From sequence record MK482689.1: 64,000 bases of DNA; one strand, 5' to 3'. The notes under the pieces are model-generated. The model saw only the letters and a list, made by a program, of their open reading frames with translations. It searched no databases and had not been told where the DNA came from. Position 1 is the stretch's first letter, and each line of letters starts with the position of its first letter. The DNA is from Escherichia phage vB_EcoM_LMP33. Shown here in pieces: positions 3,281 to 46,212 of this stretch. The position numbers were made by a program, and so were the translations under genes.

Positions 3281-3300
3281 GTCTTTATAAAAACTTACAA

Positions 3301-3323
3301 GCCTCCTTAGTTGGGGGCTTTTT
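3301..3323 (+). terminator. intrinsic terminator (GCCTCC..GGGGGC hairpin + TTTTT)
   Basis: GC hairpin followed by T-run immediately after stop of 2468..3280. Confidence 0.5.
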
Positions 3324-3342
3324 AGTAATTAAGGGAGATAGA

Positions 3343-4086
3343 ATGAGTAATATTATCGCATTTACTGGAAAGGCGCGTTCTGGAAAAGACACCTCATGTT
3401 CTATTGTTAAGAATATTCTAGAAGATGAGTATGGCTACAATGTTGCAGTAATGGCCTATGCAGACAACCTTAAACTCTCTGCATCAAAGATATTTGACTT
3501 GACTTGGAATGACCTGTACGGTGAAACTAAAGAGACTCCACAGGTTTTTGATTTATCATACCCTGAACTGATGTTCAAAGTCACAGAAGCTATGGAGTTT
3601 ACTTTCAGAGGTGAACGTTATCATACGGACTTTAAACTTATGTCAGAGTTAACCGGACGACTGATTATGGAACTAAAGAAGGTTGCTAAACCAACTTTAT
3701 TAACACGTCTGGGGTTTAGTAAAAAGTATAAATTCTCATCAAGACAGGTTCAACAGATTTGGGGTACTGAAGTTATCCGTAAAGTTATGGGTGACAAATT
3801 CTGGGCTAAAGACCTCGAAAAACGAATGGCAAATTTCTTTGACGTTTGCTCACTTAAGAATCAATACGGTGTTGTTTTAATCAGTGACTTAAGGTTTGAC
3901 TCTGAAGCTGAGTGGCTGAGCAGATTTGCACACCAAACTATCGAAGTAAAAAGAGACAATGTGGATAAGGTTTCGTCACATGTTTCAGAAAATGGGATTT
4001 CTACCAAATATGCGCGTGACATTATTCATAATAATGGTACTCTTGCAGACCTTGAGAACAAGCTAAGAGCCATCATTAAAGTTTAA
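3343..4086 (+). CDS. deoxynucleoside monophosphate kinase (T4 gp1-like)
   Basis: N-terminal P-loop FTGKARSGKDT resembling T4 dNMP kinase SGVKRSGKDT; length about 247 aa; sits in the nucleotide-metabolism module. Confidence 0.55.
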   Translation: MSNIIAFTGKARSGKDTSCSIVKNILEDEYGYNVAVMAYADNLKLSASKIFDLTWNDLYGETKETPQVFDLSYPELMFKVTEAMEFTFRGERYHTDFKLMSELTGRLIMELKKVAKPTLLTRLGFSKKYKFSSRQVQQIWGTEVIRKVMGDKFWAKDLEKRMANFFDVCSLKNQYGVVLISDLRFDSEAEWLSRFAHQTIEVKRDNVDKVSSHVSENGISTKYARDIIHNNGTLADLENKLRAIIKV

Positions 4087-4295: not shown

Positions 4296-6273
4296 AGGTC
4301 GTAAATTGAAAGAGGCTGGTCAGTTTGTTGGTCATTGCGCATGTCCACGTTGTGGTTCATCAGATGCTGGTTCAATCTATCATCATGACGATGGTTCTTA
4401 TTCAATGACTTGCTTTAGTTGTAACAAAGGTTTCCCAGAGTGGGATTTTGATAAAGGACAAATCGTGAGCACTTATTCTACTGGTTCAGACAATAAAAAC
4501 CGTACTTTCCGTGGAATGGATTTAGACGATGTGAAAGAAAACCTTGAAGCAATGGACTTAAAGGACAGGAAGATTCCTGCAAAAGTTCTTGAGCGTTTGG
4601 GTATCAAGGTTGACATTGACAGTGATGGTGAAATTGACGCGCATTTCTACCCAACTTACAAACGCAATGAAGATGGCAAGCTAGAGCATGTTGGCTACCG
4701 TGTTCGTCACCGTTACCCAGAAGACCATCCAAAAGAGCACCTACGAGGTAAGTTAAAAGACTTTTCTGGTGGTGTTGGAGACATTAAAGGTGAACTGGCA
4801 ATGTTCGGTTCATGGATTGCTCCAGAAGGTGGTAACCGTCTATTCATCTGGGAAGGTGAGATGGAATGTGCGACAGCAATCTATATGACTTCTCTTGCGA
4901 TTAAGGACAAATCTCGTCGTAAGAATTACTGTCACGTATCTGTTCCATCAGGTGCAAACATCAAGTCTATCAAAGATAACTATCAGTACATTACATCATT
5001 TGATGAGATTTACTTGTGCTTTGATAACGATGAAGCAGGTGCTAAAGCCACTAAAGAGGCTGCTGGTATCCTACCTATTGAGAAGGTTCGTTTATTCCAG
5101 TATCCAGAAGGCGTAAAAGACCTTAACGAGTGGTGGACAAAGTTCTATAAAGAGAAAGATACAGTTCTGGAAGGATTTAAGCAGCGTATCTACAATGCAC
5201 CTCGTTACTGTCCTGCTGGTATCAAGAACTTTGCAGATGGTTTTGAGGCAATGAAGAATCGTGGTCAGATTCCATTGATTCCTTTCCCAGAATCTTTCGG
5301 AGATTTGAACAGGCTGACTTATGGTGGTTACGGTTTAGGTGAGATTACAACTATTGCAGCACCATCTTCAGTAGGTAAGTCAGCTTACACTCGTGAGATG
5401 ATTTACTCAGCTTGGAAAGAAACTGATTATAATATCGGTGTAATTCCTGTAGAAGATACCTATGAAGAGTTGATGGAGATGCTCTGTGCAATCCACCTGA
5501 GCAAGCAGATTTCTGAGATTCCTTATGATGAACGGGATTGGGATGAATTAAAAGGAGCACACGCAGAACTATCTAAAGGCCGTCGTATCCATATCGTTGA
5601 CCATCAAGGGGCAATTGACCAAGATAACCTGCTAGAGTTTGTTGACTATCTTGTTAACAGTTTAGACTGTAAGATTATCATTCTTGACCCTATCACGTTA
5701 GCCCTGTCACGTTCTGATACGGATGAAGAAGAAGTTTTGTCTGAGCTATTGCGTCGTTGCAAACGCTACCAGTATGCGCAGGTAAACGTATGTCACGTTC
5801 GTAAGAGTGCAGGTGGTCAGAAAGCTAACTCTGAAGGTGGAGATATCTCTGAAGAGGATATCAAAGGTTCTGGTGCGTATTTTCAGATTTCTATGAATAA
5901 CATTCTGTTAATGCGTAACAAGGTTGACCCAGACCCAGTTAAGAAAAACTTGACAAAAATCAAGTTAACTAAGTGTCGTCGTCATGGTAAGTCAACTGGT
6001 ATTGCTGGTCATACTTGGTACAATCCAGATACAGGACGTCTCATCAAAGCATCTGGTTGTGGAGTTGACATTGATGGTGCAGCAGAAAACATTCGCCAGC
6101 AGTTTGGTATTGGTGAAGCTGAAGACCATTATGATGACTCTTTGCCACATTATGAGGATGAAGTGTTTGACCGTGAGACTGGTGAAGTCTATACTGAAGA
6201 GCAGCGTCAAAGCTCAACGATTCCACCTGTATTAAGTGAGGATGCAGATGACTGCCCGTTCGAAACTGAGTGA
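4282..6273 (+). CDS. DNA primase-helicase (T7 gp4-like: zinc finger + TOPRIM + DnaB-like helicase)
   Basis: N-terminal CxxC..CxxC zinc ribbon (CACPRCG...CFSCNKG), TOPRIM-like EGEMECATA and FDNDEAG, Walker A GLGEITTIAAPSSVGKSAYT in the helicase domain. Confidence 0.85.
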   Translation: MLMSKGRKLKEAGQFVGHCACPRCGSSDAGSIYHHDDGSYSMTCFSCNKGFPEWDFDKGQIVSTYSTGSDNKNRTFRGMDLDDVKENLEAMDLKDRKIPAKVLERLGIKVDIDSDGEIDAHFYPTYKRNEDGKLEHVGYRVRHRYPEDHPKEHLRGKLKDFSGGVGDIKGELAMFGSWIAPEGGNRLFIWEGEMECATAIYMTSLAIKDKSRRKNYCHVSVPSGANIKSIKDNYQYITSFDEIYLCFDNDEAGAKATKEAAGILPIEKVRLFQYPEGVKDLNEWWTKFYKEKDTVLEGFKQRIYNAPRYCPAGIKNFADGFEAMKNRGQIPLIPFPESFGDLNRLTYGGYGLGEITTIAAPSSVGKSAYTREMIYSAWKETDYNIGVIPVEDTYEELMEMLCAIHLSKQISEIPYDERDWDELKGAHAELSKGRRIHIVDHQGAIDQDNLLEFVDYLVNSLDCKIIILDPITLALSRSDTDEEEVLSELLRRCKRYQYAQVNVCHVRKSAGGQKANSEGGDISEEDIKGSGAYFQISMNNILLMRNKVDPDPVKKNLTKIKLTKCRRHGKSTGIAGHTWYNPDTGRLIKASGCGVDIDGAAENIRQQFGIGEAEDHYDDSLPHYEDEVFDRETGEVYTEEQRQSSTIPPVLSEDADDCPFETE

Positions 6274-14493: not shown

Positions 14494-14735
14494 TGACTTA
14501 TGTAATTTACTCCAAAACTGGATGCCCTCAGTGTGAGACTGCAAAGAATTTTGCAAAAGCTCGTGGTATTGACCATGTTGTGAGAATGTTAGGGCAGGAC
14601 TATGAACTATCAGACCTGATGGATATTGCACAGATGCCAGTTCGTCAGATGCCATTCATCATGAAAACTGATGGACAAAACCTAAAACCTGTTGGAACGC
14701 TACAGAATTTTATGGCAGAGGTGAATAATGCTTAA
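14493..14735 (+). CDS. glutaredoxin-like protein (NrdH/thioredoxin fold, CPQC)
   Basis: 80 aa with redox motif TGCPQCETAK; translationally coupled to nrdB. Confidence 0.7.
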   Translation: MTYVIYSKTGCPQCETAKNFAKARGIDHVVRMLGQDYELSDLMDIAQMPVRQMPFIMKTDGQNLKPVGTLQNFMAEVNNA

Positions 14736-14934
14736 ACGCCTTTGGGAAGGTCTGGTTGTTGATGCACCAGCCATTGTGATTGGTATGCTTGTTGTTAACC
14801 TATTTACTGATTTTGAACAAGGTTCATTGTTTGGAGCCATGTTACTATGGGTTATCTTTGAAATATTAGAGATACAGTTAGGCATCACTGAAAAACTGAG
14901 AAAACTCGTTTCTAAGTTTTCTAAAAAGATTTAA
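14728..14934 (+). CDS. small membrane protein (hypothetical)
   Basis: 68 aa with two hydrophobic helices. Confidence 0.3.
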   Translation: MLKRLWEGLVVDAPAIVIGMLVVNLFTDFEQGSLFGAMLLWVIFEILEIQLGITEKLRKLVSKFSKKI

Positions 14935-23503: not shown

Positions 23504-25870
23504 ATGCGCATGGTAAATGACCACGCAGAAGTGATTAAGAGTTCAACTTCTTTAGAGACGTCTCAAGCACAGATTACAATGACACCTGAAATGTTCAGCC
23601 TTTTGAGTTCTGGTGTATATACCTTTAAAGAAAGGGCAGTGATTCGTGAACTGTCATGTAACGCAGTAGATGCTCAGAAAGAAGCTGGAAAAGAGAATAT
23701 CCCGTTCCATGTGCATTTACCTACTCGTTTTGAACCTTACTTTGAAGTCCGTGATTTTGGAACTGGATTGACTCATGATAAAGTTATGAGTTTGTACCTA
23801 AACTACGGGGCTTCTACGAAGAATGACTCTAATGACTACATTGGTGCAATGGGTATCGGCTCAAAATCTCCATTTGCAATTGCTCAGTCATTCACAGTGT
23901 CTAGCTATGTTGACGGTGTTGTTAATAAGTACTCTGTTTATCTTGAGAATGGTATCCCTCAAGTAACTAAGCTTACCACTAACCCAACAAAAGAACCTAA
24001 TGGTTTAGCTGTACGTGTGGCAGTTGCTGACCACCGTATTTCAAAGTTCTTTGAAGAGGCTGGTAATGTATACTCATACTTTGCTGTAAAACCAGAGAGT
24101 AATGTGGAGTATAATGATATATTAGCAGATATGGATGTGATTGCTCGTGAAGAAGGTGTCTATGATGCCATGACTCATAAGCATAGCTGGCGTTCAAGCA
24201 GCAATAGAACAGAGTTTAACGTGGTTATGGGTAATATTGCCTACCCAGTTAATATGGAGGCATTACTTGGTGATGATTTCTTCAAAGTATTACCAGAATT
24301 TTTCCGCAGGAGCGTAGACCTTGTAAACATCTACATGCCTATTGGTTCAGTTGCTATTGCAGCTTCTCGTGAAGCATTGCAGATGAATGACACGACAAAA
24401 AATGTTATCATTGAGGCTACTAAAAAGATAACTGAAGCCATTACAAAGGATGTTATCAAGAAAGTTAATAGCCAACCTACACTCATGGATGCTGCACAGG
24501 CTTATGCTGAGTTACGTTTGAACTCACGAGAGATGTTTAATGCTGTGTGTCCAAAGCTAGAGTGGGGTGGTGTTAAGCTTGATTCTCTGGAAGAAGAATT
24601 ACTAAACATTCGTCGTGGAATTATCTACGCAGAAGACGGCTCAGTCATTTATGAACGTGACGGTAAAGGTAATATTAAGGTTGATAGGAACGGGAACAAT
24701 ATACCTAAAGTAGATTATCTTTATGACCCAGTTGCTTATGTCAAGTTCAACTCTTTAGAGAGTAAGATTCGTGCAACATCGCTTTCCTACACTCAAGAGG
24801 CAAGTATGTTCAATATCTTTGGCGCAATGCGTAAAAGCCAAATTGAACAGTTTTTGTTTGTTATAAATGACCGTCGCAATAAAAATGGTACTGAGAAAAC
24901 TGTAGGACGCAATCAAATCTTGCGTGGTGCATGTCGAGACTATGCCAGTGAGTCTAGTCTGTTTCACAGATACAATGGTATTGTCTTTGTATTCTCGACT
25001 GAAAAAGAGTTAGACGACCTAATCAATCTGCACAAACTTGATAAAAGCTTGTTAAAGATTGTGAAGATGTCTGATAAGGAACACCATTATCAGCGTAAAG
25101 AAGCTGTAAGAGGTGTTGTAAAACTCTGGAAAGCTGTTCCAGCAGAAGGTGTAGCTTCCTATAAAGAGGTTTCAGAGGACTTTGATACAATTGAAGAACC
25201 TCAGCTTTACATTAAGGCAGTTGGTGACACAGTTGATGGCGAATGTTTTTGCTCATCTCCAGAAGATGTAGCTAAGTCAGTTGCTAATGTTACAGGTAAG
25301 ACAGTCTATGTTTTCCGAAAAGCAAATTGGAAAAAGATACCAGAAGACTGGATTGAAGTAGATGAGAAGCTCTTGAACGACAGCTTAACTGATGTTCATT
25401 GGATTAATCATAACAGGTATATGACACGTATCTATATGAATGGTGTCCTCGACCTTACAAGCAGTTGGATTATTGCCAGAAACTTTACGTTCAATAACAG
25501 GAAGATTTCTCGTGGCTATTGTTATTCACGGGATACAAACAAAACTATCTTCTTAGAAGGCAATGAAGATGCTGTAGAGGCAATGTTTGGTAAAATCCAA
25601 TACGTTGCTGCACCGTTTGCATATACTTACACTATTAGTAGGTTGCAAACTTTGAAAGACTGCCTTGACAATGATACAAAGCTGTACAAGAAAATTAAGA
25701 AAGCTGGTGACCGTATGGTCATTAAGGTGACAAACTACCTTTCAAAAAGAAAACAAGAAAACTTCTTGCTTTCTCATTTAGATTGGAATAAAGTGTCACC
25801 CATCGAAGTGAGTAAGTTCTTAGGCTTTGATGTGAAGTGTGTTCCAGAAGGGACTACAATTTACGATTAA
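23504..25870 (+). CDS. rIIA: rIIA-like protein (GHKL/Bergerat-type ATPase N-terminal domain)
   Basis: 788 aa immediately upstream of a clear rIIB homolog; N-terminal region has GHKL-like motifs (ELSCNAVDA; RDFGTGLT; GAMGIGSKS). Confidence 0.6.
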   Translation: MRMVNDHAEVIKSSTSLETSQAQITMTPEMFSLLSSGVYTFKERAVIRELSCNAVDAQKEAGKENIPFHVHLPTRFEPYFEVRDFGTGLTHDKVMSLYLNYGASTKNDSNDYIGAMGIGSKSPFAIAQSFTVSSYVDGVVNKYSVYLENGIPQVTKLTTNPTKEPNGLAVRVAVADHRISKFFEEAGNVYSYFAVKPESNVEYNDILADMDVIAREEGVYDAMTHKHSWRSSSNRTEFNVVMGNIAYPVNMEALLGDDFFKVLPEFFRRSVDLVNIYMPIGSVAIAASREALQMNDTTKNVIIEATKKITEAITKDVIKKVNSQPTLMDAAQAYAELRLNSREMFNAVCPKLEWGGVKLDSLEEELLNIRRGIIYAEDGSVIYERDGKGNIKVDRNGNNIPKVDYLYDPVAYVKFNSLESKIRATSLSYTQEASMFNIFGAMRKSQIEQFLFVINDRRNKNGTEKTVGRNQILRGACRDYASESSLFHRYNGIVFVFSTEKELDDLINLHKLDKSLLKIVKMSDKEHHYQRKEAVRGVVKLWKAVPAEGVASYKEVSEDFDTIEEPQLYIKAVGDTVDGECFCSSPEDVAKSVANVTGKTVYVFRKANWKKIPEDWIEVDEKLLNDSLTDVHWINHNRYMTRIYMNGVLDLTSSWIIARNFTFNNRKISRGYCYSRDTNKTIFLEGNEDAVEAMFGKIQYVAAPFAYTYTISRLQTLKDCLDNDTKLYKKIKKAGDRMVIKVTNYLSKRKQENFLLSHLDWNKVSPIEVSKFLGFDVKCVPEGTTIYD

Positions 25871-25949
25871 AGTGTTTGACAAGGGGCTTCAAAGCCCCTT
25901 AGAATAGCATTACAAAATGATTTATTAACTAACAAGAGAGAGTAATAAG

Positions 25950-27059
25950 ATGACTACTAAAACTAAAGCACAGATTGACGCAGAAATTTACGAACTGGTT
26001 AAAGAAGGTAAGCTGACTAAAACAGCTATCGCACAGAAGTTCAATACTTCAACCCGTTCAGTTGGTCGTGCTGTAGAGCGTCATGAAGCAACCTTAAAAG
26101 GTAAGAAAAAGGCAACTTCTAAGCCAGCTAAGAAGACCCTAAAGCAAGTTGCTAAGTCAGTTAAAAAGAAAACTGGCAAACCAGTTGAAAAGGTTGTTAA
26201 AGAGGCTGTACAGAAAGCTCCAGTAAATAAACTGCATGAAGCTATGCAGAAAGATGACAAGATTGAGTACATGATTACTGGTGACTCTGTAATTATGACT
26301 TACGGTTCAGAGTCTGAAATTGTTGAATCTACTCATCCGAACTATCAAGAGATTGTAGTTCATGTTGTGAAAGGTGAGTTTAAGAAAGCCTTTGAACTGA
26401 TGAACATTCGTAAGTCTATCGAAAACTTCACTCAGGGTGCTATCACAATCAAAGGTGACAAGCTATTCTACGGTGCTGTTGAGATGCGTTCTACTCTGGT
26501 TGACCGTATTCTTCACATGATGAAAACTGGCGATAAAGGTTTTGAACGACTTGTAATGTTCTTCGAAAAACTGATGGAAAACCCATCTAAAGATTCTGTA
26601 GAACAACTTTGGGGATTTGTATCTCACCTTGATGTTGAGATTGATGAAGAAGGCTACATCATTGGTTGGAAGAAAGTCTCTACTCGTGAAGGCAAGCTGG
26701 TTGACTCTCACACCTACAAAGTGCCTAATGATTTGGGTAACATTGTAGAAATGCCACGTTGGATGGTTGATAATAACCGTAACGTAACTTGCTCTCAAGG
26801 TCTTCATGTTGGTGCTTGGGATTATGTTCGTTGCTTCTCAGGTGATACAATCCTGAAGGTTCGCGTACATCCACGAGATGTTGTATCTGTTCCAACTGAT
26901 TACAACGATATGAAGATGCGTTCCTCTCGTTATGAAGTTGCAGCAATCGTTGATAATCAACGTAAAGTGCTGGAAGCATGGGACGGTAAGACTGAAGCTT
27001 TGCATGTCATCGTTGGCACTGCTGGTGAACTCATCTCTCAACGTAAACGTGAAATCTAA
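25950..27059 (+). CDS. rIIB: rIIB-like protein
   Basis: Strong resemblance to T4 rIIB as recalled from memory (GLHVGAWDYVRCFSG...VRVHPRDVVSVPTDYNDMKMRSSRYEV cf. T4 VKVHPRDVVSIPIDYNDAKMRTCQYEV). Confidence 0.7.
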   Translation: MTTKTKAQIDAEIYELVKEGKLTKTAIAQKFNTSTRSVGRAVERHEATLKGKKKATSKPAKKTLKQVAKSVKKKTGKPVEKVVKEAVQKAPVNKLHEAMQKDDKIEYMITGDSVIMTYGSESEIVESTHPNYQEIVVHVVKGEFKKAFELMNIRKSIENFTQGAITIKGDKLFYGAVEMRSTLVDRILHMMKTGDKGFERLVMFFEKLMENPSKDSVEQLWGFVSHLDVEIDEEGYIIGWKKVSTREGKLVDSHTYKVPNDLGNIVEMPRWMVDNNRNVTCSQGLHVGAWDYVRCFSGDTILKVRVHPRDVVSVPTDYNDMKMRSSRYEVAAIVDNQRKVLEAWDGKTEALHVIVGTAGELISQRKREI

Positions 27060-27076
27060 TAAGTAATTTCTTAAAA

Positions 27077-27098
27077 GGCTGCTTCGGCGGCCTTTTTT
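27077..27098 (+). terminator. intrinsic terminator (GGCTGC-TTCG-GCGGCC + TTTTTT)
   Basis: Hairpin with UUCG loop and T-run after rIIB. Confidence 0.6.
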
Positions 27099-27159
27099 AT
27101 TTGTATTTTGTGCAGAGTGCTGTATAATTGTTGTCACGATAAACTAAACAGGAGAACCA

Positions 27160-27708
27160 ATGAAGAAATTGATTCTAGGTTTGTGCTTAATGTTTACAGC
27201 ACACTTATCTTATGCAGTTGACTGCCCAGAGCTATCAATTAGCCAAAAAGTAAACATGTTAAAAGCTTACCAGTATGGTGAGAATAACATGGGTAAAGGT
27301 TGGGGTATCACTCTAGCTGCTATAGCCTTACAAGAGTCAGAGTTAGGTCTGAAGGTAGAGAATAAAAAGACACATGATTATGGTATTTTCCAGAATCACT
27401 TGAAGACTGTTGTAAAGCGTAACAAAATTAGTCCTAATGTGGCTAAAAAGAAACTCTTAAGAGACTTTGACTATGCTGCAAAGGAAACGCACAAAGAACT
27501 TGAATTTTGGACAAAGGTGCATGGTCAGCCAAAGTCAAAGAAAACTTTACAAAAAGTTTTAGCATCATATAATGCTGGGTATTCGTACAGAATCCCTAAA
27601 GCTAAGAAATATTCTCAAGATGTCTATAACAACATGAAAGTTATTGCTCAATGTGAATTTGCAACAAACATTTCTAAGGTAAATCATGAAAAAATTAAGA
27701 AAGTCTGA
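27160..27708 (+). CDS. secreted protein with lytic transglycosylase (SLT)-like motif
   Basis: Signal-peptide-like N-terminus MKKLILGLCLMFTAHLSYA; AIALQESELG...DYGIFQN resembles the SLT catalytic E-S...G-x-x-Q region. Confidence 0.4.
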   Translation: MKKLILGLCLMFTAHLSYAVDCPELSISQKVNMLKAYQYGENNMGKGWGITLAAIALQESELGLKVENKKTHDYGIFQNHLKTVVKRNKISPNVAKKKLLRDFDYAAKETHKELEFWTKVHGQPKSKKTLQKVLASYNAGYSYRIPKAKKYSQDVYNNMKVIAQCEFATNISKVNHEKIKKV

Positions 27709-28381
27709 TGAAGTACTGTGTCATGCTTATGACTTACATCCTCATGAGTTAGGTCTTGATTCCTGTGTATGGACTCCAGAACAGTGTAGGGATTTTGAAG
27801 ATACCGCAAGAGAAGTTGTATGTTCACTCGAAGAGTTCCACACATTAGAGACAATTGTGAATGTTGTAGATAAAGAGACTGGACAAACTATAGGTGTAAG
27901 GCGTGACAGCTTAGTCATAGTCAATAAAGACCTTGTAGAAAAAGGTAACCTTATCTTAGCAGACATTGATGGTGTTCTTACAAATTTTAATCACGAAGAT
28001 TACTCAACGGAATTGATTGATGGGTCATTTTCACAGTACACTAATTTGCTTGACTCTGTAAGAGCAAAACCAACGTATGTTTTCAATATTATTGATGCAA
28101 TTGCTAATCATGCCGCCATTGGACTCTTGACAGCGAGAGGTGAATCTCAGAGAATACCTACTGAGATGTTTTTAAGGCATTACATAGAGCATGATTACAT
28201 GCTTTTTATGCGTGGTTTTGGGACTAACTCTATAAGTGCAGAAAGTTTGAAAGTGAGGATGATTCAGTCTTGCATTCTGCCTTACTTTAATATAGTATGT
28301 TTTATAGAAGACACAGAGAAGAATGTGCAAAAGGTGAACAGAATCCTTCCACACATTAAAACCATGTTAGTTAAACATTGA
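27686..28381 (+). CDS. HAD-superfamily-like hydrolase (putative phosphatase/nucleotidase)
   Basis: LADIDGVLTNF resembles HAD motif I (DxDG[TV]); weaker motif II/IV candidates. Confidence 0.3.
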   Translation: MKKLRKSDEVLCHAYDLHPHELGLDSCVWTPEQCRDFEDTAREVVCSLEEFHTLETIVNVVDKETGQTIGVRRDSLVIVNKDLVEKGNLILADIDGVLTNFNHEDYSTELIDGSFSQYTNLLDSVRAKPTYVFNIIDAIANHAAIGLLTARGESQRIPTEMFLRHYIEHDYMLFMRGFGTNSISAESLKVRMIQSCILPYFNIVCFIEDTEKNVQKVNRILPHIKTMLVKH

Positions 28382-28391
28382 GAGAAAACTT

Positions 28392-28856
28392 ATGAACAAT
28401 ATCATTACGGTAGCACTGGACGATACGGTAAACAAATCCGCAGTAGTTCGTAAAATGATTCAAGGTAACTTTGAAGGTAAAATTTTTCGTGCTGTTAATG
28501 TAAAAGCTGATGGCAGCATTCGTGAATATCGTGCATTGTTGAACGTTAAGAAGCACGTAAAAGGTGTTGGTTCAACGACTGCACACAAAGAAAACCTGAT
28601 GACTATCTATGATATGGGTAAGGCTTCAGAGTTAGGTGCTGAAGGTATCGTTAAAGAAGGTGCTCCGTATCGCTCTTTCAATCTGGAAACTACTCTTATG
28701 CTTTCCTTTACAAGTGGTTCCAAAACAATCACTTATCTCTTTACTGATGCTGCAACGGTATCTGCTATTAAGGATAGCACTGTCAAAGCTGGCGTAGTTG
28801 CTGCTGCAAAAGCTTCTTCGATGGCTGCGAATATCCTTGCTAAAGTCCTCGGTTAA
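28392..28856 (+). CDS. hypothetical protein
   Basis: 154-aa ORF followed by terminator. Confidence 0.35.
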   Translation: MNNIITVALDDTVNKSAVVRKMIQGNFEGKIFRAVNVKADGSIREYRALLNVKKHVKGVGSTTAHKENLMTIYDMGKASELGAEGIVKEGAPYRSFNLETTLMLSFTSGSKTITYLFTDAATVSAIKDSTVKAGVVAAAKASSMAANILAKVLG

Positions 28857-28867
28857 GGTTAAGATAC

Positions 28868-28890
28868 AGGCTCCTTCGGGAGCCTTTTTC
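28868..28890 (+). terminator. intrinsic terminator (AGGCTCC-TTCG-GGAGCCT + TTTTT)
   Basis: Perfect hairpin and T-run. Confidence 0.65.
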
Positions 28891-28908
28891 ATTTCAGGAG
28901 ATTGTTAA

Positions 28909-29256
28909 ATGACATTTAAAGAGTTCTGTCAAGCTACTTTCATAATTGTTTTCTTAGTTGGGGCGGGTGTCTGGGGAGGGTACTCTTACAGAGACTACCA
29001 AGTTGCTGAAACTGAGCTAAACAATCAAAAGCTCATAAGTGTTGCTAAAGATGCTTATCAGGAAGGATTAGTTACACTGAGCGCCAATTACAAAAATGAT
29101 TTGAAAGATGTGCTTGCTAAGAATAAGCACACAAAAGAGGTACTAACATATGAAAAAACTAAGCCAGAGTTTTATAATGTTTGTGTTACTGATAATTATG
29201 TCAGGATGTTCAACGAACAAAGTGAACAGTACATTCAAAAACTCCCAAGTAAGTGA
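28909..29256 (+). CDS. candidate i-spanin (type II inner-membrane protein)
   Basis: 115 aa, single N-terminal TM helix (FIIVFLVGAGVWGGYSY) then charged helical region; its 3' end overlaps a lipoprotein ORF in another frame. Confidence 0.35.
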   Translation: MTFKEFCQATFIIVFLVGAGVWGGYSYRDYQVAETELNNQKLISVAKDAYQEGLVTLSANYKNDLKDVLAKNKHTKEVLTYEKTKPEFYNVCVTDNYVRMFNEQSEQYIQKLPSK

Positions 29257-29419
29257 GAGTGATAAGTACACTCAAGAAGAATCACGGTATATCATCAAAG
29301 GCAACACAGGCAGTGATGTAGCAGCAGCACTTGAGTTCTACCGTGACGGCTTTTACCAGTGTACAATTAAAGCTAATAACCTTATTGACATGATTTTATT
29401 AGGGAATAAGCAGCAATGA
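29150..29419 (+). CDS. candidate o-spanin (outer-membrane lipoprotein), overlapped architecture
   Basis: 89 aa starting MKKLSQSFIMFVLLIIMSGCSTN (signal peptide with lipobox-like MSGC); starts inside the i-spanin candidate in a different frame. Confidence 0.35.
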   Translation: MKKLSQSFIMFVLLIIMSGCSTNKVNSTFKNSQVSESDKYTQEESRYIIKGNTGSDVAAALEFYRDGFYQCTIKANNLIDMILLGNKQQ

Positions 29420-29685
29420 CAGAGAATCAAGACACTTTCTATGTAGAAGGTTACTTACTGTTGCCACGACCAAAAGAAACTTATATGCGAATCGATTTCT
29501 TACCAACCATTATGGATAATGTGATGTGTCATATCTTTATGCAAGGTGTCACAGCACAGCTTAAGCATGTTGGTAAAGATTGCAAAATAAAGGTTGACAC
29601 TCATCCAGAAATCAAAGAGAATCACTACACATGGTTCTTACCAGATTCTAAAGAAATCTTAGCAGTTCTTAAAACGAGGAAGTAA
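29416..29685 (+). CDS. hypothetical protein
   Basis: 89-aa ORF. Confidence 0.3.
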   Translation: MTENQDTFYVEGYLLLPRPKETYMRIDFLPTIMDNVMCHIFMQGVTAQLKHVGKDCKIKVDTHPEIKENHYTWFLPDSKEILAVLKTRK

Positions 29686-29687
29686 CT

Positions 29688-30014
29688 ATGCAGATTAATG
29701 GAAGAGACTTTGTAGCCGTTTACTACGAGAAAGATAAAGAAGTTGGCGTAGCACAAGTAACTTACGGCAATGGTAAGTGGCTATATGGAACAATTGCAGT
29801 GGTCGGAACAAGAAGTGACACAAAAACTTTTAAAGATTGTGTTGACCTTCTTGAAGAATCCATTCAGAATCATTGGTGTCTGATATGGATGACTGACAAC
29901 GAAGTGATAGAACGCTTCAAAAAGATTGATATCAACATTGATAGTATTGAGCATGTTGATTTATATGAGCTAACTGAGAAGGTAAACTATGAAAGTAATA
30001 CTAGCCAGAGATAA
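29688..30014 (+). CDS. hypothetical protein
   Basis: 108-aa ORF. Confidence 0.3.
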   Translation: MQINGRDFVAVYYEKDKEVGVAQVTYGNGKWLYGTIAVVGTRSDTKTFKDCVDLLEESIQNHWCLIWMTDNEVIERFKKIDINIDSIEHVDLYELTEKVNYESNTSQR

Positions 30015-30216
30015 AAAGACACGAAAGCTTATCAGGTCAGCAGTGTTCATTGGACGAAATGAGGTCATCCCATTTACAGCAAATGATGTGATAGCTTACA
30101 GGAAGAACTTAGTATTCACTGACTGCTTACGTGGCTTCATCTCTGAACCATTGGAAGACTTTAAAAGTCGTTGTGGTAAAGGTATCATCATTCAAGAGGC
30201 AATTATTCATGGCTGA
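29989..30216 (+). CDS. hypothetical protein
   Basis: 75-aa ORF. Confidence 0.25.
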   Translation: MKVILARDKKTRKLIRSAVFIGRNEVIPFTANDVIAYRKNLVFTDCLRGFISEPLEDFKSRCGKGIIIQEAIIHG

Positions 30217-30409
30217 CTTCTGTAAAGATTGTTCTATCGAAATGTTCGGACGTGATACAGGTGACTTAAAAGGTCTTATCACTGAAGATGACTTTAAAGC
30301 TGGCTACGCAATGCCAGTAATCTGTGAAGGTTGTGGGTGCATCTGGGTAGACCACGAAGGGCAACGTGTAAAACCTTCAGAAGATAAAGAATCTTGGGAG
30401 AGATGTTAA
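30209..30409 (+). CDS. hypothetical Cys-rich small protein
   Basis: ATG at 30209 (MADFCKDCSIEM...CEGCGC); the track's longer version from 30131 is less likely. Confidence 0.25.
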   Translation: MADFCKDCSIEMFGRDTGDLKGLITEDDFKAGYAMPVICEGCGCIWVDHEGQRVKPSEDKESWERC

Positions 30410-31195
30410 ATGGGTATTGTAAAAATCATCAATGGCGATATCTTTGCAGCATTTGATAAAGGTAAGTTTGACATCATTGGTCACGGTTGCAACTGTATGA
30501 ATTTAATGGGTGCAGGTATCGCTGACAAGATTTCTAAACTTTACCCAAAAGCATATGAGACCGATACAGAAGTTTACCTCTATGCAGGTGGTATAGGTCA
30601 CAAACCCTGTGAAAATCTACTGGGTAATTTCTCTGTAGCACGTTTAGAACAAGGCCGTATAGCTAACCTTTACACTCAGCTTAAGACTGGTAAAGATGCC
30701 CGATACAGTGCTTTAGAGTCATCTTTGAAACAACTTAACAGATACTGTGAAGTCAATCAGTTGAAGAAAGTTGGGTTACCTATGATTGGTGCAGGTATCG
30801 GTGGACTAGACCCTCAAGCCGTCACAGTTATCATTAATCAGGTGATGAAGAGTGTAGATGTGTATCTTTATGTCTACGAAGGAGAGATGTACCACAAGTT
30901 ACGCTCAGGTTGGAAGAACTACTGTGAACCAGAATACTTTGCAGGTGTAGCAGTGTTCACAGATAACGCAGTTACCCTCTTCAGACGAAGAAAAGGTAAG
31001 ATACATCAAAGTAACCCTCCGGTTGAAAAGATGTCTCTAAGTAACGCTCTAGTTACCCACCTGTCGAAGAGCAATCACAGGATTGCAGTAACATTTGGCA
31101 GTGATGCAGATACTTATATCTATGCAAGAACTGATGAGGATATCGAGACAGTTTTCTCTTCACCAGAAGTTACCTTCTTAGACGCAAAGAACTAA
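30410..31195 (+). CDS. macro-domain protein (ADP-ribose binding/processing), putative
   Basis: N-terminus IINGDIFAAFDKGKFDIIGHGCNCMNLMGAGIA matches the macro-domain pattern (GDI...IVN.AN...G.GVA.AI). Confidence 0.45.
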   Translation: MGIVKIINGDIFAAFDKGKFDIIGHGCNCMNLMGAGIADKISKLYPKAYETDTEVYLYAGGIGHKPCENLLGNFSVARLEQGRIANLYTQLKTGKDARYSALESSLKQLNRYCEVNQLKKVGLPMIGAGIGGLDPQAVTVIINQVMKSVDVYLYVYEGEMYHKLRSGWKNYCEPEYFAGVAVFTDNAVTLFRRRKGKIHQSNPPVEKMSLSNALVTHLSKSNHRIAVTFGSDADTYIYARTDEDIETVFSSPEVTFLDAKN

Positions 31196-31264
31196 GAAAC
31201 TCTGTAGGATATTCACAATAGCCTAAGCCTTTCTTATCTGGTAAATTTTTCAGGTAAGGAGGGC

Positions 31265-31448
31265 TTTTTCATTTCAGAATTGTGCAGGTAGAGTTCTGTA
31301 GAGAAATCTGTAGAGAGAATTTTGAACTCCAAAGAGAAAATTCATTTTCAAACTGTGCAGATAATCTCCAAAGAGCTTTTTCATTTTCAAAACGTGCAGA
31401 CCACACTCAGGTCGGGCAAGAAAAATCATTTTAGATTTGTGCAGGTAG
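31265..31448. repeat. four direct repeats (A/T-run)TCATTT(T)CA(A/G)A(A/C)(T/C)(T/G)GTGCAG, plus interleaved TCTGTAGAGA and CTCCAAAGAG duplicates
   Basis: Copies ending in GTGCAG at about 31287, 31360, 31400 and 31446; no credible ORF in the region. Confidence 0.6.
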
Positions 31449-41769: not shown

Positions 41770-42273
41770 CTATAATTGTAGGTTGCATTCTTTACTTACC
41801 TCTTCAAGTTTAACCTCAGAGTCCTTAAGTCGTTTCTTATGAACTCTGAATCTTAGTAGTGAGATGATGATACCAGCTAAAGGAACAGCATACAAGTACC
41901 AAACATCATATACCTTTGCAGTAATCTGTGTGATAGTCAAGTCTTGAGCTATGTAGCTGATTGCTGATACGGCTAGTAATGTTGCTAAGAAAAAAACCAG
42001 TATCATAGCAATATTCAGACAACCTCTAGCATGGTATTCATGCTTAATGCACTTATTCTTCTCTTCAACAACACTGTTGTAGTCATTTGTAAAGTCTCTG
42101 TAGAAAGCTTTCAAGTATTCTTGAGTGTAGCCCTCAAAGCAACCTGTACCGTACCAATAATCACCACCAAAGTGTGCTATGATACCGGTATCCCCATTTG
42201 GTTTGGTTACTCTCAAAGAGGTGTGATGACGAGTATCCTGATAATCTATCTTATATCTTTCTTCGTAAATCAT
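41770..42273 (-). CDS. membrane protein, two TM helices (hypothetical; holin candidate not excluded)
   Basis: 167 aa with hydrophobic segments LNIAMILVFFLATLLAVSAISYI and LYAVPLAGIIISLL. Confidence 0.35.
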   Translation of the reverse strand: MIYEERYKIDYQDTRHHTSLRVTKPNGDTGIIAHFGGDYWYGTGCFEGYTQEYLKAFYRDFTNDYNSVVEEKNKCIKHEYHARGCLNIAMILVFFLATLLAVSAISYIAQDLTITQITAKVYDVWYLYAVPLAGIIISLLRFRVHKKRLKDSEVKLEEVSKECNLQL

Positions 42274-44614: not shown

Positions 44615-45079
44615 TTACTTTGGGTATACACTGTCAAGATAAATGTCAGCTTCCATTCTACGTCTGTTTTTCAGACCGTTTGAAGTGACCTTCTTACCTT
44701 TGACTGTAACCTTGTTCCACCACTGCATAGCTTCTGCACAACCTACCTTATTACCAGCATTGTGGCGCTTGATAAATGTGGAATCCTGCATAGCTGTGAT
44801 ACCGATGTTGTATGTTTCACTTACAAGTGCATCGAACTCATTCTGAGTAGTTGGAACCTTGATAGCTTTGTTCACTGCTGCAACAAACTTCTCAACATCC
44901 GCGAGAAGATACTGTTCAGCTTGTTCAGCAGTAATTTTCATACCCATCTTAACAGGTTTTCCGTCAATACGGATTGTCCCATACCCGATTGTTGGGATTC
45001 CGGCAGAATCTTCGTAAGCCTCTAACTCCAGACCTTCGAAGAACTTAATAGCATCTAAACCTTTTCTTGAGAGTTGCAT
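44615..45079 (-). CDS. endolysin, lysozyme (glycoside hydrolase family 24-like)
   Basis: 154 aa; N-terminus GLDAIKFFEGLELEAYEDSAGIPTIGYGT is the T4/lambda-type lysozyme catalytic region. Confidence 0.75.
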   Translation of the reverse strand: MQLSRKGLDAIKFFEGLELEAYEDSAGIPTIGYGTIRIDGKPVKMGMKITAEQAEQYLLADVEKFVAAVNKAIKVPTTQNEFDALVSETYNIGITAMQDSTFIKRHNAGNKVGCAEAMQWWNKVTVKGKKVTSNGLKNRRRMEADIYLDSVYPK

Positions 45080-46212
45080 TACGCCTCCCCTGCTGGGTTA
45101 ACTGTAACTGTTGCTGCATTGGATGTTACAGAGCCACCTGCACCAGTAACTACACAGGTGTAGCTTCCTGCATCAGCAGCGGTTGCACCTTCTTTGGTGT
45201 AAGTTGCAGTAGTTGCATCGAGGATGTCTTCCTCACCTTTCTTCCATTGGTAACCTGTCGCACCTGTTGCCACAACATTCAGCGTTAAGGTCTCACCTTC
45301 AGTGATTTCTTGATTGGTTGGCTGTTGAGTGATAACTGGTAAAGCTTTCACAGTAACGGTTGCAGGGTTAGAAGTGACAGAACCACCTGCACCTGTTACA
45401 ACGCAAGTGTATGAACCTGCATCTGCTGGCAGAGCACCAGACTTACTATAGGTTGCATCTGTAGCCGAAGGAATGTCAGAGCCATCTTTCTTCCACTGAT
45501 AACCTGTTGCACCTGTTGCAGTCACTTCCAAGTTGATGTTTCCACCCTCATTGACGGTCTGGCTAGAAGGTTGTTGTGTAATCACAGGCAGTGTGTTGAC
45601 AGTAACTGTTGCCGCATCTGAGGTAACGCTTGTCCCAGCCTCTCCAGATACAACACAAGTGTATGAACCGGCATCAGAAGGTTCTACAGACTGTTTTGTG
45701 TAGGTTGCAGATGTGGCGCTAGTGATATCCTCACCATCCTTTTTCCATTGATATCCAGTGGCATTAGTTGCAATAACGCTTAGGGTAAGTGTACCACCTT
45801 CATTTACTGTTTGATTGGTTGGTTGCTGAGTGATTGATGGTGGCTTGATAGCGCCCTTCAACTTAGCATTCAACATTGAGAATGGTTTAACTCTTGCCAG
45901 CCATTCACAATAAACTGTATCAACGTCTTTACCATTGATAATTGCATATTGTAAGTCCATGAAGAAGTCAGAAGTTCTCATTTGAGCACCAACACTGTAA
46001 AGCAACTCATCACTAAATGGAACTTTGTAGTCTGGTTTATAGTCAAACTTCTCAACTTCTGCAATATCAGCTTCAGGCCAATACGAGCTATAGGTAAGTG
46101 GTAAAATAGCCTCTTGATATGTTCTAAAATCATATCTCTTACCAGCCTTTACGTTTGCAATGAAGCCCTTCACAAACTCTTTGAAGTCTGGGTAAGTCTT
46201 TGCTTTAATCAT
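45079..46212 (-). CDS. protein with N-terminal domain plus three tandem Ig-like domains
   Basis: Three repeats of about 85 aa (ITQQP..Q.VNEGG...ATGYQWKKDG...AGSYTCVVTGAGGSVTS..ATVTV), immunoglobulin-like; N-terminal 120 aa paralogous to the adjacent 123-aa protein. Confidence 0.55.
   Translation of the reverse strand: MIKAKTYPDFKEFVKGFIANVKAGKRYDFRTYQEAILPLTYSSYWPEADIAEVEKFDYKPDYKVPFSDELLYSVGAQMRTSDFFMDLQYAIINGKDVDTVYCEWLARVKPFSMLNAKLKGAIKPPSITQQPTNQTVNEGGTLTLSVIATNATGYQWKKDGEDITSATSATYTKQSVEPSDAGSYTCVVSGEAGTSVTSDAATVTVNTLPVITQQPSSQTVNEGGNINLEVTATGATGYQWKKDGSDIPSATDATYSKSGALPADAGSYTCVVTGAGGSVTSNPATVTVKALPVITQQPTNQEITEGETLTLNVVATGATGYQWKKGEEDILDATTATYTKEGATAADAGSYTCVVTGAGGSVTSNAATVTVNPAGEA
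45100..45850. repeat. three tandem DNA repeats of about 250 bp encoding the Ig-like domains
   Basis: Nucleotide-level repetition underlying the three Ig-like units. Confidence 0.55.

Follow-up and report, generated by a model that had tools for sequence, protein, structure and literature searches.

A predicted overlapped spanin pair and a predicted secreted Vs.1-family transglycosylase, two separate Felix O1-type functions, in an Escherichia phage

Introduction

The lysis genes of Felix O1-like phages have been described as scattered over the genome (PMC4319497; PMC3185647, section 2.8), and the same has been stated for T4 (PMC6139136). In the 2010 table of Felix O1 genes, the 154-aa lysin is gp35, and ORF3 was entered as ‘Vs.1 CHP’, with Vs.1 as its closest homologue (PMC3185647). 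The similarity of Vs.1 to SLT proteins had been pointed out in 2006, in a comparative-genomics note (PMC1524935), and this note was all that our literature search for functional work on Vs.1 returned. The literature searched contained no experimental test of any Vs.1 homologue or of any Felix O1-type spanin.

Here we analyzed a window of 64,000 nucleotides, the whole stretch of DNA under study, from Escherichia phage vB_EcoM_LMP33 (MK482689.1). Its DNA is 100% identical to that of Escherichia phage vB_EcoM_LMP34/LMP25 and 96-98% identical to that of other Felixounavirus members, and by this measure the phage is a Felixounavirus. The part of interest was previously read from the sequence only, as an envelope-directed gene set formed by a secreted SLT-like protein, a TM protein and a lipoprotein ORF overlapped by the latter. 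All three were found again at the same positions (Table 1), the TM protein gene starting 1,201 nt past the SLT stop codon, in agreement with the 1.2 kb noted before. We propose, with a probability of about 85%, that the stretch carries two unrelated and already described Felix O1-type functions, namely a spanin pair and a Vs.1-family transglycosylase.

Table 1. Positions of the genes, protein segments and transcription signals discussed in the text
Feature	Position	Strand	Basis or remark
Intrinsic terminator after rIIB (Felix O1 ‘t2’)	27073..27096	+	10-bp stem with 5 GC pairs, then T-run
Perfect TATAAT -10 hexamer	27123..27128	+	read from sequence
GH23/SLT lytic transglycosylase (predicted Sec-exported), 182 aa, Felix O1 ORF3 homologue	27160..27708	+	motifs, homology, fold
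Signal peptide of SLT protein (predicted), aa 1-19	27160-27216	+	
Catalytic Glu59 of SLT protein (predicted)	27334-27336	+	
Pnkp-like HAD phosphatase, 231 aa, Felix O1 ORF4	27686..28381	+	phrog_3970, E 1.6e-133
Conserved 154-aa protein, Felix O1 ORF5	28392..28856	+	phrog_2267, unknown function
Intrinsic terminator (Felix O1 ‘t5’)	28868..28885	+	terminator scan; Felix O1 Table 2
i-spanin (predicted), 115 aa, Felix O1 ORF6/p014 family	28909..29256	+	phrog_1152, spanin database, conservation
i-spanin TM segment (predicted), aa ~6-24	28924-28980	+	hydrophobicity
o-spanin (predicted), 89 aa, Felix O1 ORF7	29150..29419	+	lipobox, conservation, spanin database, Moogle start
o-spanin lipobox MSGC	29198-29209	+	predicted lipidated Cys20 at 29207-29209
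Intrinsic terminator (Felix O1 ‘t13’) after Macro/Tk.4-like gene	31225..31266	+	terminator scan; PMC3185647
GH24 endolysin, canonical soluble, 154 aa, Felix O1 gp35 homologue	44615..45079	-	Pfam Phage_lysozyme, E 4.5e-41

Results

Gene organization

The terminator that follows rIIB has the sequence given for t2 in Table 2 of the Felix O1 report (PMC3185647), and it ends the rIIA-rIIB unit that precedes the SLT gene. Between this terminator and the SLT gene lies a TATAAT hexamer, with TTGTAT 16 nt upstream of it (27101-27106) and an AGGAG ribosome-binding site further on (27150-27154). This hexamer may tentatively be regarded as a host-type promoter for the SLT operon; it was missed by the consensus scan because its -35 element agrees at only three of six positions. 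The next gene shares 23 nt with the end of the SLT gene and encodes a phosphatase that carries the DIDGV HAD motif and lacks the P-loop, and its match to phrog_505 is limited to profile positions 157-282 of 295, which is the phosphatase half. This Pnkp-like phosphatase is cytoplasmic and is not the product of an envelope gene. The 154-aa protein that follows, which has a homologue in a distant phage contig (L008), shows neither a signal peptide nor a transmembrane or other hydrophobic segment.

The terminator t5, listed as ggctccttcgggagcctttttcattt in Table 2 of the Felix O1 report (PMC3185647), ends 23 nt ahead of the i-spanin start and forms the border between the SLT operon and that of the spanins, which is closed by t13. 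As predicted from these signals, the SLT gene thus stands in an operon with the Pnkp-type phosphatase and the 154-aa gene, bounded by t2 and t5. The idea of a single envelope-directed gene set therefore has to be given up, because the SLT gene appears to be co-transcribed with two non-envelope genes and the spanins open the next unit. Because t5 lies directly ahead of the i-spanin ribosome-binding site, there is no space for a promoter between them; how the spanins are expressed behind t5 is a question posed likewise in the Felix O1 report (PMC3185647).

A single cassette of SLT gene and spanins was also considered and was rejected, because a terminator and two cytoplasmic genes intervene and because the genes are unlinked both in T4-type phages and in contig L008. 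In the former, vs.1 adjoins regB, away from the spanin genes pseT.3/pseT.2; in the latter, the order rIIB-SLT-phosphatase is seen, and the 5 kb of contig downstream contain no lipobox ORF. A Pfam check gave no support for a Macro-domain gene beside the spanins of Kuravirus.

The spanin pair

The TM protein and the overlapped lipoprotein were previously taken as candidate spanins, and this is borne out by their architecture, by family matches and by an entry in the spanin database. The hydrophobic N-terminal segment of the i-spanin (Kyte-Doolittle 19-residue mean of 1.75) is kept in five lineages, and the protein is predicted to have a single N-terminal TM segment (type II, N-in/C-out) followed by a periplasmic C-terminal domain. 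It matches phrog_1152 (‘Rz-like spanin’) at E 1e-41, and the records of relatives label its homologue i-spanin. A single-sequence AlphaFold2 model was all-helical at low confidence (pLDDT 60). In the spanin database, as we interpret its columns, 58 of 88 periplasmic residues of the Felix O1 i-spanin are helical, and its row in what appears to be the coiled-coil table consists of zeros throughout.

The N-terminus of the o-spanin is MKKLSQSFIMFVLLIIMSG, followed directly by C-S-T, and it fits the PROSITE PS51257 pattern. The lipobox and the Cys-Ser-Thr are invariant in five lineages, one of them a podovirus, and are retained even in relatives at 26-28% identity. Since the residue at +2 is Ser and not Asp, sorting to the outer membrane is predicted. 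The o-spanin matches phrog_4180, of unknown function, and weakly (E 2e-4) phrog_456, a spanin PHROG. In the five-lineage comparison, Cys92 in the periplasmic domain of the i-spanin and Cys71 of the o-spanin are both invariant, in agreement with the near-universal periplasmic Cys of spanins, reported for 507 of 528 pairs (PMC6139136). Taken together, the two predicted proteins show the N-terminal TM segment, the lipobox with a residue other than Asp at +2 and the gene overlap expected of two-component spanins. A Pfam search with both gave no Rz or Rz1 match at E ≤ 0.1, so that the pair is best described as predicted functional analogues of Rz/Rz1 outside the Pfam Rz/Rz1 families. The mature o-spanin is without proline, unlike lambda Rz1. 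The pair lies in an early/middle block beside the rII genes, not near the endolysin gene.

The overlap of the two genes is itself informative. The o-spanin ORF covers, in the +1 frame, the final 107 nt of the i-spanin gene (29150-29256), and of the 544 off-frame ATG ORFs that start within the 72 long ORFs of the window, no other has an N-terminus of the lipoprotein type. A +1-frame lipobox ORF recurs in Moogle, Zyzzx, Kuravirus ES17 and Erwinia vEam_PM_6. In a comparison with Moogle, 10.3% of sites have changed in the overlap as against 27.2% in the flanks (Fisher p = 1.8e-4), a 2.6-fold slower divergence, and in the part that encodes the o-spanin only, 27 of the 50 differences are silent in the o-spanin frame. 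The overlap is under dual-coding constraint. In the annotation of Moogle, the o-spanin starts at the position identical to ATG 29150, and this start is supported here. Several GenBank records of Felixounavirus, Zyzzx and Kuravirus, however, begin the o-spanin past its signal peptide and lipobox, or call both genes ‘hypothetical’; the record of the window itself has both as ‘hypothetical’ and the o-spanin truncated. Correcting this start in several GenBank records is the sole new point of the present analysis.

The predicted secreted SLT-like protein

We also examined the protein encoded beside rIIB, whose assignment to the SLT family by the sequence-only reading is now supported by motifs, by Pfam matches of homologues and by fold. 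Its N-terminus is MKKLILGLCLMFTAHLSYA, followed directly by VD, with a KK n-region, a 13-residue h-region and S-x-A at -3/-1, and the predicted signal peptide is retained across homologues. A SAR (signal-arrest-release) anchor was considered and rejected, because the h-region is only ~13 residues long and is followed by an A/S-x-A cleavage motif that is conserved in homologues. The motifs E59-S60, G75-x-x-Q78 and S-Y137-N138-A-G140 are present; across 14 homologues, down to 30% identity, E59, Q78, Y137, N138 and G140 are invariant, and S60, G75 and S136 show a conservation of at least 90%. Each of the 14 has either the pair Cys22 and Cys165 or neither of them, and the two probably form a disulfide.

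The Pfam SLT score of the protein alone was 18.9 bits, below the gathering cutoff of 21.3, but every one of the 14 aligned homologues matched the family at E ≤ 0.01 (best, 8.2e-12). The best PDB profile match was the specialised transglycosylase EtgA (E 2.4e-4). With Foldseek, the 40 best matches of the AlphaFold2 model (pLDDT 84) were exclusively GH23 enzymes; those in the PDB were g-type lysozymes, MltE, MltF, MltD, Cj0843, a Ralstonia chitinase and phiKZ gp144, mostly with probabilities of 0.85-1.0 and with best query-normalised TM-scores of 0.5-0.57. In BFVD, small phage SLT proteins matched the model with TM-scores of 0.66-0.80 and E-values down to 1e-9. The model indicates a goose-lysozyme-like fold, and by motifs and homology the protein is assigned to the GH23/SLT lytic transglycosylases. 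BLASTP against Vs.1 of RB68 gave 32% identity (E 2e-16) in an alignment that spans both N-termini, and tblastn returned 2,140 phage records, among which were Tequatrovirus, Mosigvirus and the ‘vs.1’ of 44RR2.8t. The protein is called ‘putative lysin’ in some records.

Endolysin and holin

The GH24 endolysin, which is the main muralytic lysis enzyme, is encoded on the strand opposite to the spanins, 15.2 kb beyond position 29419; the earlier figure of about 16 kb was a fair one. In RT-PCR of Felix O1, the SLT gene (ORF3), the phosphatase gene (ORF4), the i-spanin gene (ORF6) and the lysin gene (ORF35) share a peak at 25 min. A search of the holin PHROGs with eight small membrane ORFs of the window gave no match, and the holin annotated in relatives (Andreotti_64) had no match within the window, its gene lying outside. 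The lysis genes are thus scattered in this phage as in T4. Their dispersal, which the sequence-only reading had suspected, was already in print for Felix O1-like phages and T4, as cited in the Introduction.

Discussion

Alternative explanations

Could the SLT protein be a true second endolysin? In that case it would be an endolysin of the signal-peptide type that waits in the periplasm, is activated by holin depolarisation and joins the spanins in the lysis pathway. There is a precedent in the Campylobacter Fletchervirus F352, whose endolysin is a 188-aa SLT protein with a signal peptide, Sec-dependent and holin-activated (PMC7692668), and the name ‘putative lysin’ would suit this role. The timing would suit it as well, as ORF3 falls into the 25-min class together with the lysin ORF35 and the i-spanin ORF6. 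However, this class does not discriminate because it includes most of the tested Felix O1 ORFs. In addition, the phage already has a canonical cytoplasmic GH24 endolysin, and the SLT gene appears to be co-transcribed with the Pnkp-type phosphatase and not with lysis genes. Searching a phage collection gave no sequence link to the Campylobacter phage endolysins: with the SLT homologue P0020, neither the summary by organism nor the 25 matches listed included a Campylobacter phage, and therefore F352 can be used solely as a mechanistic precedent. T4 e mutants do not lyse despite the presence of vs.1, which suggests that a Vs.1-type enzyme is insufficient for lysis. We therefore regard a second endolysin as doubtful. 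Still less credible is a virion-borne enzyme that pierces the wall during entry, even though many phage SLT domains are carried in virions, and examples such as PRD1 P7 and tape-measure or internal-core fusions were seen among the weaker structural matches. Homologues retain the predicted cleavable Sec signal peptide, which would be incompatible with assembly in the cytoplasm, and ORF3 was absent from the virion proteome of Felix O1 as determined by mass spectrometry (PMC3185647). Moreover, the Bas63 cryo-EM paper mentions a transglycosylase only for hub proteins of a C. difficile bacteriocin and not for Bas63. We consider such an entry function extremely unlikely.

The TM protein and the lipoprotein might instead have a different task in the envelope, for example in superinfection exclusion or in masking the receptor as the T5 lipoprotein Llp does. 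Their location among early/middle genes beside rII and away from the endolysin would fit this, and so would the lack of proline in the o-spanin and of a recorded coiled coil in the i-spanin (in the database table as we interpret it). Nevertheless, the predicted architecture, with TM segment, lipobox and gene overlap, is that of two-component spanins, the family is curated as spanins in phrog_1152 and in the spanin database, and the window offers no other lipoprotein-type off-frame ORF that could take the role. The spanins of T4 are also distant from its holin and endolysin genes, yet they complement lambda Rz/Rz1 (PMC6139136), and the family of the window pair is found in Kuravirus podophages too, with other gene neighbours, as one would expect of a self-contained lysis module. 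Superinfection exclusion, which had been raised earlier as an alternative role, found no support of any kind, and we judge a non-spanin function of the pair very improbable.

Proposed mechanism and meaning

Our model for the spanin pair and the Vs.1-family enzyme starts from what was observed above, namely the features of the sequences, their homology and fold, the operon boundaries and the dual-coding constraint, and it further assumes export, lipidation, disulfides, enzymatic activity and a role in lysis. The i-spanin would be held in the inner membrane by its N-terminal TM segment, while the o-spanin would be synthesised as a prolipoprotein, receive its lipid on Cys20 and be sent to the outer membrane owing to Ser at +2. 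Their periplasmic domains may then bind to give a complex across the periplasm, in which the invariant Cys of each spanin is probably engaged in Dsb-dependent intermolecular disulfides. After removal of the murein mesh by the GH24 endolysin, lysis would end with the fusion or disruption of the outer membrane by the spanin complexes. The SLT protein would be exported by Sec, cleaved by signal peptidase I after Ala19 and stabilised by the Cys22-Cys165 disulfide. It would cut MurNAc-GlcNAc bonds in the periplasm, presumably as an accessory enzyme that remodels the wall or assists lysis and not as the main endolysin.

A more speculative view is that the Vs.1-family transglycosylase provides a fourth envelope function, which either thins or opens the murein before holin triggering or takes part in periplasmic signalling of lysis inhibition or superinfection. 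If thinning occurred, endolysin and spanins would act faster, and if the function were real, the positions of the SLT gene beside rIIB and of vs.1 upstream of rI (by ~2.4 kb in a T4-type genome) would carry meaning. At present we hold this to be quite unlikely.

Earlier work on Felix O1 and its relatives already covers the Vs.1/SLT homology, the spanin pair, the terminators and the dispersal of the lysis genes, and there is little discovery value in this stretch. Its practical value lies in the o-spanin annotation and in pointing out the Vs.1-type enzyme. A predicted secreted transglycosylase of this family occurs in ~2,100 genomes of virulent phages (T4-like, Vi1-like and Felix O1-like), which would place it among the most widespread uncharacterised phage envelope proteins.

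Comparison with known systems

T4 Vs.1, a 20.7-kDa ORF product of ~181 aa encoded between regB and vs, is a full-length homologue of the SLT protein, with which it has the signal peptide and the QES, FQ and SYN-G motifs in common. The neighbourhoods differ, as the SLT gene stands beside rIIB and the Pnkp-type phosphatase whereas vs.1 of T4-type phages stands between regB and vs. In addition, the Cys22/Cys165 pair is found in the Ounavirinae branch, and more distant members of the Vs.1 family are without it. The small transglycosylases of secretion systems of the EtgA type are also ~150-190 aa long, with a Sec signal peptide, a single GH23 domain and the E-S/GxxQ/AYNxG motifs. IagB, IpgF, VirB1 and P19 are further specialised small lytic transglycosylases of such systems. 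The SLT protein, in contrast to EtgA, is from a virulent phage with no secretion-system partner nearby, and the similarity between the two is weak (the profile match given above). The F352 endolysin (PMC7692668) resembles it in having a signal peptide and an SLT domain, and in F352, as in the window, the lysis genes do not form a cassette and the spanins overlap. There, however, the SLT protein is the only endolysin of the phage and has been tested, whereas the window phage has a GH24 endolysin besides.

As for the spanins, T4 PseT.3/PseT.2, lambda Rz/Rz1 and P2 LysB/LysC likewise consist of an inner-membrane type II protein and an outer-membrane lipoprotein with conserved periplasmic Cys. The number of Cys per partner (i, o) is 1 + 1 in the window pair, 0 + 2 in T4 and 2 + 1 in lambda. 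The overlapped architecture is that of P2 LysB/LysC, whereas the lambda genes are embedded and the T4 genes separated; in T4, as in the window, the spanin genes lie away from holin and endolysin and near a pseT-like gene. The closest system is Felix O1 ORF6/ORF7, which is entered as ‘ovl’ in the spanin database of Kongari et al. (2018), with a 348-nt i-spanin gene and products of 115 and 89 aa. Its genes likewise overlap by 107 nt in the +1 frame and are preceded by the same tttttcatttcAGGAGattgttaa, and the i-spanin sequence in the database differs from that of the window at 2 of 115 residues. The Felix O1 pair and the pair described here show no difference of substance.

Overlapped spanin pair

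The overlapped gene pair is, on its sequence features, a real spanin, and one that is already catalogued. The 115-aa protein has a single, N-terminal hydrophobic segment and hits PHROG 1152 ('Rz-like spanin') with E 1e-41, and the 89-aa ORF, in the +1 frame, shares the final 107 nt of the i-spanin gene and begins with MKKLSQSFIMFVLLIIMSG followed by CST. Many relatives' records name these two genes i-spanin and o-spanin. The spanin database supplement (Kongari et al. 2018) lists Felix O1 with 'ovl' architecture, an i-spanin gene of 348 nt, an overlap of 107 nt and products of 115 and 89 aa, and the sequence upstream of the spanins, tttttcatttcAGGAGattgttaa, is identical in the window and the Felix O1 entry (PMC6139136).

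We also examined whether the second ORF might have arisen by chance. Among 544 off-frame ATG ORFs starting inside the 72 long ORFs of the window, the o-spanin ORF alone has a lipoprotein-type N-terminus. A +1-frame ORF with a signal peptide, lipobox and Cys-Ser-Thr recurs in four other lineages: Citrobacter phage Moogle (i-spanin 77% identical to that of the window), and Hafnia phage Zyzzx, podovirus Kuravirus ES17 and Erwinia phage vEam_PM_6 (26-36%). Between the window and Moogle, 10.3% of sites differ in the overlapped 107 nt and 27.2% in the non-overlapped parts (Fisher p = 1.8e-4), and 27 of the 50 differences in the o-spanin-only part are silent in the o-spanin frame; both frames are therefore under selection.

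Residue +2 of a lipoprotein governs its sorting by the Lol system, with Ser at this position directing it to the outer membrane, as is predicted for this o-spanin. Each partner carries one invariant periplasmic cysteine (i-spanin Cys92, in F-x-N-x-C; o-spanin Cys71), in line with the periplasmic cysteines that nearly all spanins have, and for which intermolecular disulfides have been shown in lambda and T4 (PMC6139136). With a probability of roughly 0.9, the i-spanin in the inner membrane and the lipoprotein o-spanin in the outer membrane would bridge the periplasm, be held back by the murein mesh and destroy the outer membrane once the GH24 endolysin has degraded the wall.

In several public records the o-spanin CDS starts 3' of the signal peptide or lipobox: at window 29222 in LMP34, at window 29198 in Andreotti, and likewise shortened in Zyzzx and ES17 (o-spanin ORFs at L005 3188-3484 and L006 3212-3472). 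The sequence evidence supports the ATG at 29150, the start of Felix O1 ORF7 and of Moogle. Such misplaced starts are described in the spanin paper itself (PMC6139136). In ES17 (2977-3472; 26% identity) both genes are recorded as 'hypothetical'. The same family sits among different neighbour genes in phiEco32-like podoviruses, an indication that the pair has moved horizontally as a self-contained module.

Gene order and operon limits

The 5-kb stretch around the SLT and spanin genes is 100% identical to Escherichia phages vB_EcoM_LMP34 and LMP25, and shares 96-98% identity with many further Felixounavirus genomes. The gene order from rIIA to Macro is that of Felix O1 ORFs 1-13, and the Felix O1 gene table gives 182 aa for ORF3, 231 for ORF4, 154 for ORF5, 115 for ORF6 ('membrane protein') and 89 for ORF7 (PMC3185647 supplement).

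Positions of the genes and terminators in the window
Feature	Position	Strand	Remarks
68-aa membrane protein	14728-14934	+	conserved; two hydrophobic segments; phrog_4532
rIIA	23504-25870	+	
rIIB	25950-27059	+	
Strong intrinsic terminator	27073-27096		Felix O1 t2; after rIIB
Secreted 182-aa protein (SLT)	27160-27708	+	
231-aa protein	27686-28381	+	
154-aa protein	28392-28856	+	
Strong intrinsic terminator	28868-28885		Felix O1 t5; before i-spanin start
115-aa membrane protein (i-spanin)	28909-29256	+	
89-aa ORF (o-spanin)	29150-29419	+	+1 frame relative to i-spanin gene
Macro-domain protein, Tk.4-like	30410-31195	+	last of several small genes after spanins
Strong intrinsic terminator	31225-31266		Felix O1 t13; after Macro gene
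167-aa membrane protein	41770-42273	-	conserved; two hydrophobic segments; phrog_4343
GH24 endolysin	44615-45079	-	Pfam Phage_lysozyme, E 4.5e-41
377-aa protein	45079-46212	-	three tandem Ig-like domains; abuts endolysin

The three terminators have been published for Felix O1 (PMC3185647). Terminators t2 and t5 place the SLT gene in an operon with the 231-aa phosphatase-like gene and the 154-aa gene, and the spanins open the following operon, whose last gene encodes the Macro protein. Only 23 nt lie between t5 and the i-spanin start codon (region 28868-28908), too few for a sigma-70 promoter, so that the spanins would have to be expressed by read-through or from a promoter that precedes the terminator; the same question is posed in the Felix O1 paper. 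In its RT-PCR, ORFs 3, 4 and 6 and lysin ORF35 all belong to the 25-min class, as do most tested genes, and ORF7 was outside the tested set (PMC3185647).

Relatives' records call the 231-aa gene 'polynucleotide kinase'. Its matches to Pnkp profiles are confined to the phosphatase half, a DIDGV HAD motif is present and a P-loop absent, so that the protein probably has phosphatase activity alone; no match was obtained for residues 1-82. The SLT-phosphatase synteny is kept in Moogle, Zyzzx, Erwinia Kolesnikvirus and L008, a distant metagenomic phage contig (SLT protein 37% identical), and is, judged from these comparisons, old. In L008, rIIB and the SLT gene are separated by a 75-aa ORF with two hydrophobic segments (5678-5905), which resembles a holin or a membrane protein and has no counterpart in the window.

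Secreted SLT protein

The SLT protein begins with MKKLILGLCLMFTAHLSYA followed by VD and carries E59-S60, G75-x-x-Q78 and S-Y-N-A-G140. By itself it scored 18.9 bits against Pfam SLT, slightly below the threshold of 21.3. A database search yielded 21 homologues, and in an alignment of the protein with 13 of these, all 14 sequences matched Pfam SLT (best E 8e-12), with E59, G63, Q78, Y137, N138, G140 and Y151 invariant. The profile of this alignment matched EtgA, a type III secretion transglycosylase, best among solved structures, followed by goose-type lysozymes. The AlphaFold2 model (pLDDT 84; residues 1-18 disordered) retrieved only GH23 enzymes among its 40 best PDB matches, and gave TM 0.66-0.80 with small SLT proteins of other phages. 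The homologues share the signal peptide and its small-x-small cleavage motif. Of the 14 sequences, 10 have both Cys22 and Cys165 and the other four have neither, as expected of a periplasmic disulfide. The protein is thus very probably a Sec-exported GH23 lytic transglycosylase in its predicted biochemical identity.

By tblastn, 2,140 phage records contain relatives; among them are T4-type phages, where the relative is vs.1, between regB and vs (RB68 Vs.1: pairwise 32% identity, E 2e-16). Vs.1 is the closest homologue of Felix O1 ORF3 (PMC3185647), and Nolan et al. 2006, who reported its SLT similarity, proposed 'some role in cell lysis' (PMC1524935). Our literature search found no paper assigning a phenotype to a Vs.1-type protein. 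A 214-kb Campylobacter coli assembly contig also encodes a 193-aa homologue (L009 6001-6582), 1.4 kb from a gene matching the phiKZ chimallin family (PF25677; 8019-9953); this region may represent a nucleus-forming jumbo phage, either whole or as a remnant.

We favour an accessory function in wall remodelling or assistance of lysis. That the protein is a second endolysin of signal-peptide type is unlikely, and ranks lower because a canonical endolysin coexists in the same phage and because T4 e mutants fail to lyse although vs.1 is present. A precedent for this type is the SLT endolysin of Campylobacter phage F352, which depends on Sec and is activated by the holin (PMC7692668). A virion-borne entry enzyme is very unlikely, given the signal peptide and the absence of the protein from the Felix O1 virion proteome (PMC3185647).

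Dispersed lysis genes

The GH24 endolysin lies 15.2 kb from the spanins, in the late region, adjoining the Ig-domain protein. The Felix O1 counterpart of the latter, gp36 ('tail protein'), has a listed length of 294 aa, and Ig repeat number may therefore differ between the two phages. The holin annotated in relatives (Andreotti_64) is a protein of 123 aa in which a single N-terminal transmembrane segment precedes a long polar tail. Nothing in the window matches it, and it must therefore be located outside. The 167-aa and 68-aa membrane proteins of the window matched no holin families. Scattered lysis genes are explicitly stated for Felix O1-like phages (PMC4319497; PMC3185647), and likewise in a T4 spanin figure legend (PMC6139136).

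The observations of the sequence-only reading, namely a secreted protein with an SLT-like ES...GxxQ motif, a TM protein overlapped by a lipoprotein ORF in another frame, and a distant endolysin on the opposite strand, were confirmed, and its interpretation was partly right. Spanins and dispersal hold. A single envelope-directed gene set does not, as t5 separates the SLT operon from the spanins and the two are not linked in L008, which has no lipobox ORF within 5 kb after its SLT gene, or in T4-type genomes. Nothing supports its alternative of superinfection exclusion. All of the findings on SLT, spanins and dispersal are already known for this phage group; what remains is the correction of the o-spanin start codon in several public records, and a reminder that Vs.1-type secreted transglycosylases have only a predicted role.

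Comparison with T4 and lambda

Window 23504-31266 resembles a compact T4 early-region set (rIIA, rIIB, vs.1-like SLT, pseT-like phosphatase, spanins, tk.4-like Macro), and in the T4-type phage RB68 vs.1, tk.4 and rI are likewise no more than about 3 kb apart. In T4 the analogues of the spanins are pseT.3/pseT.2, whereas vs.1 adjoins regB, apart from them. A Pfam search found no membership of the pair in the lambda Rz/Rz1 families, the mature o-spanin contains zero proline, and the Felix O1 i-spanin row in what we read as the coiled-coil table of the spanin database is all zeros (PMC6139136); a single-sequence AlphaFold2 model of the i-spanin is all-helical, with low confidence. The window spanins are thus a separate sequence family, with the same predicted function as lambda Rz/Rz1.
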